From Escherichia virus TH41: a stretch of 64,000 nt of DNA. The notes under the pieces were generated by a model. That model was not told where the DNA came from. It ran no database searches and saw only the letters and a list, made by a program, of their open reading frames with translations. The stretch lies in the sequence record MT446412.1. One strand, 5' to 3'. This document shows, piece by piece, positions 1,811 to 59,665 of this stretch. A program made the position numbers and the translations under genes. Numbering within the stretch: position 1 is the stretch's first letter; the number at the start of each line of letters is the position of its first letter.

Positions 1811-3370
1811 TTAAATTCCTTTAACATATACGCGGCGGAAGTAACCGTTCAAGCCGAGGCTATTAACGATGTCCGGCATACCATTCTGAATGCGCTTGGT
1901 CGGAGCCTGAGCAGCAGGGTCAGCAAACGGGTTGATACCGATACCGTAACGGGTTTTGAAGCCCATAACCGGCTGGAAGTTTTTCGGGTCAGAGCCACGC
2001 AGCGGGGTCAGTGCAACATATGGTGCGTAGTAGATACCAGCATCCATTTCGTTAGCGCCTTTGTAACCGATGGTGAAGTAATCTGCACGAGCATACTGGT
2101 CGATATAGACACGGTATTTGCCACCCAGAACACCAGCGAACACAGCTTTAGTGGTGTCAACGTTGAAACCTTTACCCAGACCCTGAGCAGCATAACTTAC
2201 AGAAGTATCAACAGCAGCCAGTACGTTAACTACGTTACGGGAAGCGATGATGAAGTTACCTGCACCACGACCGGTCTGACGAGCGATTTCAGCGGCTTCT
2301 TTATCAATCTGGAACAGTAAAGCTTTGAAGCTTTCACCAGCCCAACGAGCACCACGGATATCAATCGGGTCCTGGAAGTCAAACACACCAGCTTTAGCGC
2401 CAACGGTGTTGGTCATACCAGATTTACCAACCTGTGCGGAGTAGTTAATCCAATCGATAACTTCGCGGTTGATTTCCAGCATAATTTCGGTAGCCAGAAT
2501 ACCACTCAATTCGGCATCAGCATCCATACCGTGAACAGCGCGCAGGTCCTGTGCCAGTTCGATGGAGTAGCTTGCTTTCAGCTGACGGGATTTAGCTTCG
2601 ATAACTTGTTTGTCGATGCGGAAGCCCATTTCGTTCCACGGGTTATCAGAGGAACCGTTAAAACCTTCTTGCAGTTCGGCGATGGAGGTAGCCATACCTT
2701 CAGCCAGTTCAGCCAGCTGACCAGCTTCAACCAGAGCGGTAACAGCAGCGTCAAGTTTAGCAGCGTCAGTAGCAGCAGCATCAACAGTTACAGCTTCAAC
2801 AGCCTGGAAGTGTGCAGAACCAGTTGCTTCGAAGAAGTGAGAATAAATTTTACCAACTTCCAGAACTTTGCTTGCAGCCAGTGCTTCAAAAGTCTGAGCA
2901 GCGCCCTGACCAGAGAACATAGCGTTCGGAGCATACATCGGGTGGAAAGCTTCTTTAGCACCAGCAGCGACAGGGTCTTTACCGTAAACTGCACGCAGGG
3001 CAAATACCTGGCCAGTCGGGTTGTTCAGAGGCTGTACGCCACAAATATCAAACGCAATCAGATGCGGGATAGCACGACGAACCATACCCATAACTGCCGG
3101 CCCAATCTGAGTTACTGCACCAGAGGTCTGGCCAGCGGCGATATTGGTAGCATCATAACCATGGTCACCACCGATTTCAGCTTCGGTCAGGAAAGAACCA
3201 AATGCTTCGGAGATTTTTTCATCACGGTATTCAGGAGCGGTCAGGATATCTTGTTCCTGGTTTTCAAAGATTTTAGCGATGATAGCTTGTTTAGAAGCAC
3301 CAACGATTTCAGGAAGAGCTTCGTTTTCCAGCAGAGCGGACCATTTTTGAACTAATGCATTCTTTTTCAT
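1811..3370 (-). CDS. 23: Major capsid protein gp23
   Basis: 519-aa ORF; long stretches identical to T4 gp23 as recalled (e.g. GSFLTEAEIGGDHGY, AELSGILATEIMLEINREV, C-terminal YFRRVYVKGI). Confidence 0.95.
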   Translation of the reverse strand: MKKNALVQKWSALLENEALPEIVGASKQAIIAKIFENQEQDILTAPEYRDEKISEAFGSFLTEAEIGGDHGYDATNIAAGQTSGAVTQIGPAVMGMVRRAIPHLIAFDICGVQPLNNPTGQVFALRAVYGKDPVAAGAKEAFHPMYAPNAMFSGQGAAQTFEALAASKVLEVGKIYSHFFEATGSAHFQAVEAVTVDAAATDAAKLDAAVTALVEAGQLAELAEGMATSIAELQEGFNGSSDNPWNEMGFRIDKQVIEAKSRQLKASYSIELAQDLRAVHGMDADAELSGILATEIMLEINREVIDWINYSAQVGKSGMTNTVGAKAGVFDFQDPIDIRGARWAGESFKALLFQIDKEAAEIARQTGRGAGNFIIASRNVVNVLAAVDTSVSYAAQGLGKGFNVDTTKAVFAGVLGGKYRVYIDQYARADYFTIGYKGANEMDAGIYYAPYVALTPLRGSDPKNFQPVMGFKTRYGIGINPFADPAAQAPTKRIQNGMPDIVNSLGLNGYFRRVYVKGI

Positions 3371-37236: not shown

Positions 37237-37312
37237 GGCCCTGTAGCTCAATTGGTTAGAGCATCCGGCTCATAACTGGCAGGTTTCCGGTTCAAGTCCG
37301 GATGGGGCCACC
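37237..37312 (+). tRNA. tRNA with CAT anticodon (Met or Ile2-type)
   Basis: Hand-folded cloverleaf: 7-bp acceptor stem (two G-U pairs), D-arm GCTC/GAGC, anticodon loop CTCATAA, T-loop TTCAAGT, discriminator A. Confidence 0.75.
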
Positions 37313-37389
37313 CGGGGTGTAGCTCAATTGTATAGAGCAACGGTCTTCTAAACCGTAGGTTGTGGGTTAGAATCCCACCACCCCGACCA
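37313..37389 (+). tRNA. tRNA-Arg (anticodon TCT)
   Basis: Hand-folded cloverleaf: perfect 7-bp acceptor stem, anticodon stem ACGGT/ACCGT with loop CTTCTAA, T-arm GTGGG-TTAGAAT-CCCAC, encoded CCA. Confidence 0.85.
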
Positions 37390-37404
37390 ATTACTGAGGA
37401 TATT

Positions 37405-37644
37405 ATGGTTATTAGTGAATCATATGCAGTTATGGATATAACCAGCAACGAGCTGGTTTATAGCTTTGATGAGTTTGACGAAAATGATAAACAAGTCCCA
37501 TGGTTTGCATTAACTGCTCCACCTGAACATAATAAATATCTAAGTTTCCCGACTCGCAGACTAGCAACAAATTTTATGGAATTCAATGACCTTGATTCCA
37601 ATTATAAGGTTGTTAAAGTCAAATTAGCTATTACAATTGAATGA
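37405..37644 (+). CDS. Hypothetical protein (79 aa) just downstream of the tRNAs
   Basis: ATG after GAGGA SD at the 3' end of tRNA-Arg; acidic protein. Confidence 0.45.
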   Translation: MVISESYAVMDITSNELVYSFDEFDENDKQVPWFALTAPPEHNKYLSFPTRRLATNFMEFNDLDSNYKVVKVKLAITIE

Positions 37645-37649
37645 GAAGC

Positions 37650-37830
37650 CGGGTCGCTACCGGTAAGTCGTCGGGGCCTGTTCCCTGGGGTATTGTTCCT
37701 CCCACAGTTTTCTGTGTTCTGGTTCTTTACTATCACATCAGGCACGGCGCACCCTTTTACGGAGTTTTTCCAGAGCGGGCGGTGCGCCCGGTAGTATGAG
37801 AAATCCGAGCGGATGGTGCATCCGGTACTA
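37650..37830 (+). ncRNA. Candidate structured small RNA downstream of the tRNA pair
   Basis: About 180 bp with no plausible ORF, locally GC-rich, with stems GGCGCACC/GGTGCGCC (37746-37788) and CGGATG-gtg-CATCCG (37810-37824); resembles the placement of stable RNA species next to T4 tRNA genes. Confidence 0.3.
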
Positions 37831-37835
37831 TGGAA

Positions 37836-37843
37836 TATAAATA
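37836..37843 (+). promoter_or_regulatory. Late promoter box TATAAATA upstream of ORF 37875
   Basis: Exact TATAAATA on plus strand 32 bp upstream of the ATG. Confidence 0.45.
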
Positions 37844-37874
37844 TTAACAACAACCCTAATAATGGAAAAACAAA

Positions 37875-38325: not shown

Positions 38326-38347
38326 TAAATCAACTAAAGAGAAACGT

Positions 38348-38902
38348 ATGAAACTGTTAAAATATTTGAGTTGGATTCTGTTAGTTCCGCTGGATTTTAT
38401 CTCCATGATTCTGGCCGTTATCCTGGCTCCATTTGTAGTTCCGTTCCATAATAAAAAGACTGGTAAACTTCCGTTCGGGTTTGATTGGATGATGACTTAT
38501 GATAATCCGATTGATGGTGACCGTGGTCATATCAAACGTTGGTCAAAAATCCGAAAATGGCCATTAGGTGTTTACTTCCAACGAGTAGCCTGGCTCTGGC
38601 GAAACAAAGCATACAATTTTGCTTACCACAAGCTCGGTCGTGATTGCAATTCAGAATTCCATTATAAAGGTAATCCTGATGTTGAATCTGGTTCCCCAGA
38701 TAAAGCTCATCATGGATGGCTCTTTATGTGGACGGACAATGCCTGGGGTGTTTTTGCTTCTGTTCCTTATCTTAAGGTCGGTGGAATCACCTTTTATCTG
38801 CGTGTTTATTGTGGCTGGAAGCTCAAGAGCCTTCTGTCCCGACCCATCCCTAAGGCTATGCTCGCCTTTCATATAAATCCGTTCCGCTTTTATAAGAACT
38901 AA
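38348..38902 (+). CDS. Membrane-anchored protein (184 aa)
   Basis: N-terminal hydrophobic segment LSWILLVPLDFISMILAVILAPFVV; start placed at ATG with AAAGAGAAA leader. Confidence 0.5.
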   Translation: MKLLKYLSWILLVPLDFISMILAVILAPFVVPFHNKKTGKLPFGFDWMMTYDNPIDGDRGHIKRWSKIRKWPLGVYFQRVAWLWRNKAYNFAYHKLGRDCNSEFHYKGNPDVESGSPDKAHHGWLFMWTDNAWGVFASVPYLKVGGITFYLRVYCGWKLKSLLSRPIPKAMLAFHINPFRFYKN

Positions 38903-38903
38903 C

Positions 38904-38925
38904 AGCCCGCATTGCGGGCTTTTTT
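38904..38925 (+). terminator. Rho-independent terminator
   Basis: agcccgc-att-gcgggct hairpin followed by TTTTTT. Confidence 0.65.
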
Positions 38926-38962: not shown

Positions 38963-38992
38963 GTGTACATCCAAATTGTCTGGGTGCATAAT
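38963..38992 (+). promoter_or_regulatory. Early promoter cassette (GTGTAC -35-like / CATAAT -10)
   Basis: GTGTAC, 18-bp spacer, CATAAT, then conserved leader gattccatactgagttacac. Confidence 0.4.
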
Positions 38993-39043
38993 GATTCCAT
39001 ACTGAGTTACACACTGAATCAAACAAAACTTTGGAGAAATAAA

Positions 39044-39469
39044 ATGAACTTTCTGACCCTGACCTCTGCATTCTCTGTTACCCGCATCACTAACAAAATG
39101 GTTGCTGACGAAGTATGTGAAATCTGCATTCGTGAAGATGCACTTATCCATCTGACTTCAACCCAGATTGTTGCCATTGCCAAGTCCCTTAATTCTGAAC
39201 TGAAGGTAAACACCAAACAGTCAAAAGAATCTATCATTGAATTAATCCAAGCTGAAATGATTGAATTCCCAATTGAAGAAGTTAAAGAAGAAAAAATCCA
39301 GTCCAAATCTGGTAACGCTCGTGACATTTGCTTCCAGGCATTTGCAGAAATTGATATGAATGATAATGCAGCTCGTCGCGCTCTGATTGATGTTCTGGTT
39401 ACCACCCATGATATCAAAAAGACTGTTGTTCAGTCATATGCATCCAACTTCCGCAAAGCTCAAAAATAA
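39044..39469 (+). CDS. Hypothetical protein, paralogue A (141 aa)
   Basis: C-terminal region ...NAARRALIDVLV...VVQSYASNFRK shared with the 39553 ORF. Confidence 0.55.
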   Translation: MNFLTLTSAFSVTRITNKMVADEVCEICIREDALIHLTSTQIVAIAKSLNSELKVNTKQSKESIIELIQAEMIEFPIEEVKEEKIQSKSGNARDICFQAFAEIDMNDNAARRALIDVLVTTHDIKKTVVQSYASNFRKAQK

Positions 39470-39481
39470 TTGAGAAAAGTG

Positions 39482-39510
39482 TTTTACTTCCAGATGGGAT
39501 AGTGTATAAT
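39482..39510 (+). promoter_or_regulatory. Early promoter / stem-loop cassette
   Basis: TTTTAC -35-like, 17-bp spacer, TATAAT; gggatag...tatccca inverted repeat flanking -10. Confidence 0.45.
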
Positions 39511-39552
39511 TATCCCATACTGAGTTACCAAATAAACAAACGGGAAAATAAA

Positions 39553-39996
39553 ATGAAAACTTCAAAACTGGTTAAGTATGTTAAACTGGCATTAAACAAC
39601 TCTTCTGAAGCTGAAGCACAATCCGCAGCACGTATGTTCTTCAAACGTCTGACAGCTGAAGGTATTTCATTTAACCCGGCAGTATTTGGTATCACTCGTG
39701 GCGAAGCTGCTAAACTGGCAACTCTGGCAGGTAAAATTTTTAAAGGTCTGAATGATGGACAGGTTAAACCAGAAGTTAAACCTACTCCTAAAGCTGAACC
39801 AAAAGCTGAACGTAAGGCACCTAAACGCTCCGGTATGAGCAACAAAGATTTATGCTATGATATGTTCAAAACTGTTAATATGTCTAATGGTGCTGCTCGC
39901 AGAGCTGTTATTGATATGATTGTGCGTGAGTTTGGATTCAACAAAGCATCAGTTCAGTCTTATGCTTCCAACTTCCGCAAAGAATTTGAAATTTAA
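39553..39996 (+). CDS. Hypothetical protein, paralogue B (147 aa)
   Basis: C-terminal region ...NGAARRAVIDMIV...SVQSYASNFRK shared with the 39044 ORF; Lys/Pro-rich linker. Confidence 0.55.
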   Translation: MKTSKLVKYVKLALNNSSEAEAQSAARMFFKRLTAEGISFNPAVFGITRGEAAKLATLAGKIFKGLNDGQVKPEVKPTPKAEPKAERKAPKRSGMSNKDLCYDMFKTVNMSNGAARRAVIDMIVREFGFNKASVQSYASNFRKEFEI

Positions 39997-40002
39997 TTAA
40001 AA

Positions 40003-40036
40003 AGGGGGTATACAAGCCCCCTGCTTTAAGGCATAA
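40003..40036 (+). promoter_or_regulatory. Stem-loop plus early promoter-like element
   Basis: ggggg-tatacaag-ccccc hairpin followed by CATAAT and the tccatactgagttacac leader. Confidence 0.35.
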
Positions 40037-40078
40037 TGATTCCATACTGAGTTACACAATAAAACACTGGAGAATAAA

Positions 40079-40384
40079 ATGAAATTCATCATCAACCTGG
40101 CGCTTGTTGACTTTGATAAAACTGGTAATTTCGCATCTGCTGAAAATATGATTCGTAACACCAAGTTCAAAGTGCAAGTCCAACAGGCGGTAGCAAAAGA
40201 GTTCTTTACTGATAAATTAACTAACGTTGTTAATCACCTGAATGTGCAAGTTAAATTCACTCGTGAAGCGGAAACTACTGTTGCATTTGATTTTGACTGC
40301 CAATACCATGATGAATATGTTCGCCGCATCCTGGATATTGTGTCTGATGAACTTTATTATGGTGTGCAGGAAAACAAAATCTAA
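40079..40384 (+). CDS. Hypothetical protein (101 aa)
   Basis: ORF with GGAG SD; no recognisable motif. Confidence 0.5.
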   Translation: MKFIINLALVDFDKTGNFASAENMIRNTKFKVQVQQAVAKEFFTDKLTNVVNHLNVQVKFTREAETTVAFDFDCQYHDEYVRRILDIVSDELYYGVQENKI

Positions 40385-59040: not shown

Positions 59041-59081
59041 GATTCCATACTGAGTTAACAAATAAACAAACGGAGAATAAA

Positions 59082-59629: not shown

Positions 59630-59665
59630 GTTCCCATACTGAGTTACCAAATACTGGAGAATAAA

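Follow-up and report, generated by a model that had tools for sequence, protein, structure and literature searches.

Two adjacent genes of a T4-like phage share a C-terminal block, differ in their N-terminal halves and each lie behind a copy of the same promoter/leader cassette. How did this arrangement arise, and what does the shared block do? A sequence-only reading of the locus had proposed that recombination between the cassettes duplicated a gene, and that the N-terminal halves of the copies then diverged. The sequence observation proved real, whereas most of the evolutionary account built on it is wrong. The overall reading that we favour, and hold to be rather probable, is of a modular early gene pair with an old shared domain of helix-turn-helix (HTH)-like type, a nucleic-acid target and an intervening ORFan whose insertion or deletion is bounded by cassettes. 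Throughout, the window denotes the whole stretch of 64,000 nucleotides that was analysed.

The locus and its two genes

The 1.2 kb around the gene pair is 100% identical to Escherichia phage UPEC01 and 93-99% identical to 33 further records, all examined ones of which belong to the genus Gaprivervirus. The window belongs to this genus of T4-like E. coli phages (Straboviridae), whose members include VR7, SP18 and CJ20. The genes of the locus are as follows.

37237-37389: tRNA-Met and tRNA-Arg genes, 5' of the pair, which lies on the plus strand
38345-38902: upstream gene, encoding a full-length DUF7338 / phrog_2143 protein (E = 4e-63)
39044-39469, plus strand: ORF1, the class A paralogue, 141 aa, phrog_9997, pI 5.7
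39553-39996, plus strand: ORF2, the class B paralogue, 147 aa, phrog_18416, pI 10.0, net charge +13
40079-40384: next gene 3' of ORF2, phrog_7474

Further 3' lies a gene for a 197-aa protein that is annotated as T4 e.6 in relatives, and gene content between the tRNA genes and e.6 differs among these relatives. In genomes of the T4 type, its equivalent is the variable tRNA-to-e region. Several listed ORFs at 37360-37853 overlap the two tRNA genes or the adjoining stretch and look spurious. The gene at 38345-38902 is labelled 'holin' in UPEC01, which looks like a misannotation: its product is a DUF7338 protein, and the true t holin gene adjoins asiA in VR7 and T4. In phage EAWsc9 the same gene is named an 'amidase-6 domain' protein.

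Both ORFs are present at the positions that the sequence-only reading had given, and they are true paralogues across their C-terminal domain. Pairwise BLASTP aligns 73 C-terminal residues at 42% identity (E = 2e-17); the shared block proper measures about 50-58 aa, and the last 58 residues taken alone are 47% identical (E about 1e-14, or about 2e-14 when the whole window was searched by tblastn). Between the N-terminal halves no significant similarity was seen (E = 1.6), and tblastn found no third copy of the C-terminal block in the 64-kb window. The ATG starts at 39044 and 39553 follow Shine-Dalgarno sequences (GGAG and GGGA) and agree with the N-termini of all homologues, whereas the listed versions that begin further 5', at GTG, extend into the promoters.

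That the similarity arose by chance, or that the ORFs are not genes, has next to no probability. The ORFs are small and have no Pfam match (Pfam and NCBIfam searches with the whole proteins returned sub-threshold noise only), and nothing more speaks for such a view. Against it stand the pairwise E-value, full-length HMM matches of ORF1 to phrog_9997 (residues 1-141, E = 1.5e-71) and of ORF2 to phrog_18416 (residues 1-147, E = 9.3e-93), orthologues kept across genera and confident structure models. Through the C-domain, each protein also matches the PHROG of the other and a third family of 71-aa proteins, phrog_17275. PHROGs holds the three as separate families, all without function or annotation, and has no record of the shared domain, the class structure or the conserved pairing.

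Promoter cassettes and the intervening ORFan

The claim that each ORF has its own promoter/leader cassette on its 5' side was confirmed by overrepresentation of the cassette core and by an alignment that covered eight copies. The core CCATACTGAGTTAC has nine matches with at most two mismatches in the window, where 0.4 are expected. Full cassettes number six (cores at 1442, 38997, 39515, 40042, 59045 and 59634) and are laid out as a -35 element (GTGTAC/GTTTAC), a 17-nt spacer, a -10 element (C/TATAAT), the invariant CCATACTGAGTTA, an A/C-rich stretch and GGAG...ATG. Three of them belong to the locus.

38904-38920, plus strand: terminator-like hairpin AGCCCGCATTGCGGGCT followed by a T-run, 3' of the DUF7338 gene; the stem-loop of cassette 1
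38963-39043, plus strand: cassette 1, promoter and leader, with -35 GTGTAC (38963-38968), -10 CATAAT (38987-38992), core CCATACTGAGTTA (38997-39009) and Shine-Dalgarno GGAG (39033-39036)
39483-39552, plus strand: cassette 2, with -35 TTTACT (39483-39488), -10 TATAAT (39505-39510), core (39515-39527) and Shine-Dalgarno GGGA (39542-39545)
40003-40078, plus strand: cassette 3, 5' of the gene at 40079-40384, with -10 CATAAT (40032-40037) and core (40042-40054)
40003-40022: hairpin of cassette 3, whose loop carries the -35 TATACA (40009-40014)

A promoter scan reads cassettes 1 to 3 as TGTACA-17-CATAAT, TTTACT-16-TATAAT and TATACA-17-CATAAT. The terminator scan found no hairpin in cassette 2, 5' of ORF2, and called that of cassette 3 on the minus strand; its plus-strand reading rests on the palindromic sequence.

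Promoter-early stem-loops (PeSLs) of T4-type phages are repeated intergenic units in hyperplastic regions; AT-rich DNA and a promoter of sigma-70 type, in many cases with a stem-loop, lead up to the Shine-Dalgarno sequence and ATG of an ORFan (Arbiol et al. 2010, PMC2839356; Comeau et al. 2014, PMC4122927). Reporter assays and PCR have addressed their promoter and terminator activity and the formation of mini-circles (PMC2839356). Judged by layout, the cassettes described here match this known type. They combine an AT-rich stretch, sigma-70-like -35 and -10 elements with a 17-nt spacer, a Shine-Dalgarno sequence and the ATG of a small ORFan; a stem-loop accompanies two of the three copies, once 5' of the -35 and once with the -35 in its loop; and an insertion or deletion between close relatives has its breakpoints inside cassettes. 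They differ in that the -35 is of the T4 type (GTGTAC/GTTTAC), whereas the PeSLs of RB49 and phi1 have TTGACA, in that cassette 2 is without a stem-loop, and in that conservation is highest in the transcribed leader, CCATACTGAGTTA(A/C)CAAA. Neither article mentions SP18, VR7 or JS98, and the present locus adds the Gaprivervirus group to the phages with cassette shuffling of the PeSL type and supplies a recombinant junction at base level.

Expression from the cassettes is very probably early; host sigma-70 RNA polymerase would transcribe both genes as soon as infection begins. GGAG is the Shine-Dalgarno sequence of most cassettes (e.g. 39033-39036 and 40063-40066) and also the cleavage motif of the T4 endoribonuclease RegB, an inactivator of early mRNAs.

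The leader, (C/T)CATACTGAGTTA(A/C)CAAA...GGAG, hardly varies among its copies in this phage, and the same holds for Morganella phage MP1, of another genus, and the T4-like metagenomic contig L015, although the proteins behind it in MP1 and L015 are only about 45-62% identical. Copies lie in the window at 38993-39043, 39511-39552, 40038-40078, 1438-1475, 59041-59080 and 59630-59662, in MP1 (L013) at 1326, 1836, 2199, 3009 and 3361, and in L015 upstream of 2879 and 3408. Such constancy in front of diverged proteins suggests selection on the leader itself, which may act, for example, on promoter escape, mRNA stability or translation. Rfam searches of the cassettes gave sub-threshold matches only, on the terminator hairpin, and the leaders had no match. 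Since the leaders are predicted to be unstructured, with less RNA structure than shuffled sequences, no riboregulator is proposed.

What these cassettes do at the locus can be read from an unrelated 98-aa ORFan, with a cassette of its own, that lies between A and B in 16 of the 34 Gaprivervirus records, always at that one site. The carriers include CJ20, VR25, TH22, PSD2001 and VR7, whose ORF2 is truncated; the window is without it. In CJ20 one cassette precedes the ORFan and another precedes ORF2; cassette 2 of the window begins like the first and ends like the second, with the crossover inside CCCATACTGAGTTA[A/C]CAAATAAA. Cassette 2 is a recombinant junction between direct repeats, and the comparison shows an ORFan gained or lost between A and B by homologous recombination between cassette cores. 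The sequence-only reading had been right that cassettes recombine here, as the ORFan attests, but the further step, from recombination to duplication of the paralogues, found no such counterpart: the cassettes account for the gain or loss of the intervening gene, not for the paralogue duplication. Nor did a comparison with the loci of relatives, which the sequence-only reading had suggested as a check, reveal variation in paralogue copy number. What varies is the intervening ORFan and, in VR7, the length of ORF2.

In VR7, ORF2 (L005 2210-2416) is cut off after residue 62, ahead of the C-domain. The deletion also removes phrog_7474, e.6 and other genes up to e.4, and its breakpoint lies inside ORF2, not in a cassette. 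Because VR7 is viable in this state, the C-domain of B is dispensable, and A and B would be accessory rather than essential.

Origin and age of the pair

If the pair arose by recent duplication, its N-terminal halves should be diverged copies of one another, as had been proposed. Structure prediction (AlphaFold2) instead gave the following modules.

39044-39268, plus strand: N-terminal module of ORF1 (aa 1-75), three short strands and a helix-extension-helix
39314-39466, plus strand: shared three-helix domain of ORF1 (aa 91-141), with the invariant VQSY within the terminal VVQSYASNFRK
39553-39738, plus strand: N-terminal helical module of ORF2 (aa 1-62), with the motif LALNNSSEGEA..AARMFF; weakly DUF2786-like
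39739-39837, plus strand: disordered basic linker of ORF2 (aa 63-95), rich in K/P/A/E
39838-39993, plus strand: shared three-helix domain of ORF2 (aa 96-147), pLDDT about 95-98

The helix-extension-helix of ORF1 occupies aa 39-74 (motif QxVxxAKSxNxxxxVNxK), with a helix at 39-49, an extended segment and a second helix at 61-74, and in the model a short linker joins the module to the three-helix bundle. The module has no Pfam match, Rho_N, SAP and HeH having been considered, and the Foldseek search with ORF1 gave a weak match to the SAP-containing structure 1zbu (E = 4.5). The GenBank record of EAWsc9 calls the ORF1 orthologue a rho-N domain protein, a label that Pfam did not reproduce here. 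For ORF2, the match to DUF2786 scores 14.4 bits (E = 0.037), below the Pfam gathering threshold of 23.9 bits; similar sub-threshold matches occur in five of eight class B members (best E 0.02). A likeness of the ORF2 N-terminus to T7 Gp2 (E = 0.39) was treated as chance. The ORF2 linker is 8 aa longer in the close relative EAWsc9 (L003 2109-2576), which gives a protein of 155 aa as against 147 aa. The orthologue carries the label 'H15 domain' (linker histone) there, for which the low-complexity, lysine-rich linker is probably responsible. In the ORF2 model itself, the helical module covers residues 1-60 and the disordered linker 61-95.

The two N-terminal halves are therefore different modules, of different predicted topology and without detectable similarity, rather than diverged copies. 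On these models, the fusion of one domain to different modules would fit better than divergence after duplication.

Each class, moreover, has its own orthologues well beyond the genus. The following gene orders were found.

Gaprivervirus: A-[±98-aa ORFan]-B
T4-like metagenomic contig L015: DUF7338-A-B
Morganella phage MP1 (Gualtarvirus): B-gp118-A, order reversed
Erwinia phage RF1: A-[167-aa protein]-B
Contigs L016-18 of ~45.7 kb, with Terminase_6/Phage_portal_3 genes and not T4-like: A-[44 aa]-B
Acinetobacter phage ZZ1: A only

From lineage to lineage, A and B enclose another unrelated gene, and the slot therefore appears to be a recurrent insertion site: in RF1 (L004 3174-3677) the 167-aa protein has an HNH-like motif, judged by eye; in the 45.7-kb contigs the slot contains a 44-aa ORF (L016 4534-4668); and in MP1 it contains gp118 (L013 1873-2142). 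The class orthologues of MP1, RF1 and ZZ1 are 45-56% identical to the window proteins over their full length. Charge separates the classes in each of the five pairs measured: the class A protein is acidic or neutral, with a pI of 5.2-6.6, whereas that of class B is strongly basic, with a pI of 9.8-10.0 and a net charge of +11 to +13.

Within the window, the shared block of ORF1 and ORF2 is 57% identical at the nucleotide level, and conserved residues have identical codons in 14 of 23 cases, compared with 10.2 expected from codon usage; synonymous sites are near saturation. In an unbootstrapped neighbour-joining tree of 48 columns the C-domains mostly group by class, although the ORF1 domain of the window falls with class C and not with the other class A domains.

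Together, this distribution shows A and B to be an old, co-inherited two-gene module, present in several different phage backbones. Recent tandem duplication by unequal recombination between cassettes, followed by rapid N-terminal divergence, is a natural first thought at a locus where highly similar direct repeats flank each gene, demonstrably recombine and border genes whose C-terminal blocks are paralogous. We nevertheless regard it as very unlikely. It leaves unexplained why the N-terminal halves differ in topology, why each class has full-length orthologues in distant phages, why backbones that are not T4-like carry both A and B, why the gene order is reversed in MP1 and why codon identity in a block of such low nucleotide identity is near the codon-usage expectation. 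With class orthologues in distant phages and codons at this level, the duplication or fusion must be old, and it is therefore not attributable to the present cassettes. As an account of the extant cassettes, recent duplication is largely refuted; the A/B split is older than they could explain, as the orthologous pairs in MP1, RF1 and the non-T4 contigs make plain.

Neighbouring 'paralogues behind repeated promoters' need not, then, be recent duplicates. The locus offers a well-resolved but quite ordinary instance of modular evolution in phages, and current understanding is not overturned by it.

The shared domain and its possible targets

The domain that the two proteins share defines a small and hitherto unannotated family with an invariant C...F...VQSY. 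An index-free HMM search among 1.84 billion representatives gave 15 matches at E <= 0.001, one of them spurious; a word-indexed search with a two-sequence alignment of the C-domain gave no matches, probably because the query is too short for the word index. P0032, a 2548-aa RTX/Ig-repeat protein, was rejected as a member, its score being an artefact of eight weak repeats summed. In the aligned members the domain spans about 50 aa, with C, F and VQSY invariant and M, S and R near-invariant. The consensus is CYxxFxxIDMxDxxARRxxIDxLVxxxGFxKxVVQSYASN[FY]RK, and the last helix carries the motif VQSY(A)SN[FY]RK. Three or four architectures occur: class A (ORF1-like), class B (ORF2-like), class C (P0021 and P0024) and stand-alone domains (P0030 and VR7ORF277c). 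P0029 has the look of a class A gene that lost an internal segment, and the distant protein P0033 has two degenerate domain copies in tandem.

AlphaFold2 predicts the C-domain as a three-helix bundle with helix-turn-helix geometry, with helices at 97-105, 113-127 and 131-145 in ORF2 (mean pLDDT 84) and at 92-101, 108-122 and 126-140 in ORF1 (mean pLDDT 83). It has no Pfam match, and across 22 members no Pfam HTH or homeodomain family was found at E <= 10. The best match of the family profile among all PDB sequences is the homeodomain 2da3, with a marginal E-value of 0.011; the alignment spans helix 2-turn-helix 3 (GLKKRVVQVWFQ versus GfkKrvVQSYAS). A post hoc hhalign comparison with the homeodomain gave a probability of 88% but adds little, because the target sequence was in part a reconstruction. 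Foldseek with the ORF1 model against the PDB returned nothing below E = 1, and a BFVD structure search recovered family members only. The likeness is closest to homeodomain-like three-helix HTH domains (for example the ZFHX3 homeodomain 2da3, engrailed 1du0 and the Oct-1 POU homeodomain 1pog), with the BEN domain 4x0g and RecX repeats as further comparable folds. Unlike homeodomains, the VQSY domain does not retain the recognition-helix residues W48, F49, Q50 and R52, has no Pfam homeodomain or HTH match and, in isolation, shows no more than mild basicity, with pI values mostly of 8-10 and a few of 5-6. On the models, the domain is probably a homeodomain-like HTH by fold; it is not placed in any curated HTH family, and the resemblance may be convergent, as is often the case with so small a fold.

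From helical periodicity, V, Y/A and F/Y of VVQSYASNFRK would face the core, while Q, S, S, N, R and K would lie together on a polar, strictly conserved face of helix 3, like that of an HTH recognition helix. In the reading that we favour, this face would contact a conserved nucleic-acid target, a protein target being less likely. Flexible linkers join the shared domain to the two unrelated N-terminal modules, and two different modules would thereby be brought to one common target. Nucleic-acid binding as the function of the domain, suggested by its sequence and predicted fold, comes a little short of an even chance. Recognition of the cassette leader itself was considered and rejected: RF1 and contigs L016-18 have the pair too, yet CCATACTGAGTTA is missing from their leaders, so that pair and leader show no correlation.

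A third copy of the domain lies outside the 64-kb window. This stand-alone copy of 71 aa (L011, VR7, 3001-3216; L019, UPEC01, 1501-1716) has its own terminator and cassette in Gapriverviruses and ends 2 nt before the start codon of motA, the gap making it probable that the copy is co-transcribed with this middle-transcription activator. It is not a homologue of T4 motA.1, which is a different protein of 49 aa, and tblastn of a phage collection found no T4 homologue of the family.

It is worth asking whether the domain serves as a protein-protein interaction module and not as a nucleic-acid binder, perhaps by docking on host RNA polymerase or sigma-70, or by hetero-oligomerisation of A with B or of A, B and the stand-alone copy. 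We consider this an unlikely but serious alternative to the nucleic-acid target. Several observations would suit it: A and B have been inherited together in all backbones but those of the Acinetobacter phages, their acidic/basic asymmetry is conserved, the stand-alone copy is probably expressed with motA, and the domain alone has little basic charge. An invariant surface motif in phages of Escherichia, Morganella, Erwinia and Acinetobacter would likewise fit a conserved host protein. A candidate likeness of the segment F.IDMN.D to sigma-70 region 4, as a mimic, was rejected: hhalign, run against an RpoD sequence, aligned nine columns (IDMN) at a probability of 1%.

Early host-takeover ORFans of T4 include proteins with sigma-like segments (Srd and Srh), and T4 possesses the AsiA/MotA system. 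The VQSY proteins resemble these as small proteins made from early promoters in hyperplastic regions, and one family member lies directly 5' of motA. In contrast to Srd and Srh, the VQSY domain gave no match to sigma-70 region 4 in sequence or profile, and T4 has no homologue of it.

A more speculative and rather improbable extension of the preferred nucleic-acid reading and its protein-binding alternative would treat A, B and the stand-alone copy as one system, in which a horizontally mobile pair of early genes brings an acidic and a basic partner to one conserved target through the shared VQSY domain. A and B would then hetero-oligomerise or bind side by side on, possibly, DNA of the host nucleoid, RNA polymerase or the conserved leader of the early cassettes, and the MotA-linked stand-alone domain would act as competitor or modulator, which would tie the system to the switch from early to middle transcription. 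The pairing of A with B and their charge asymmetry across unrelated backbones recommend the family as a candidate for a role in host takeover or regulation.
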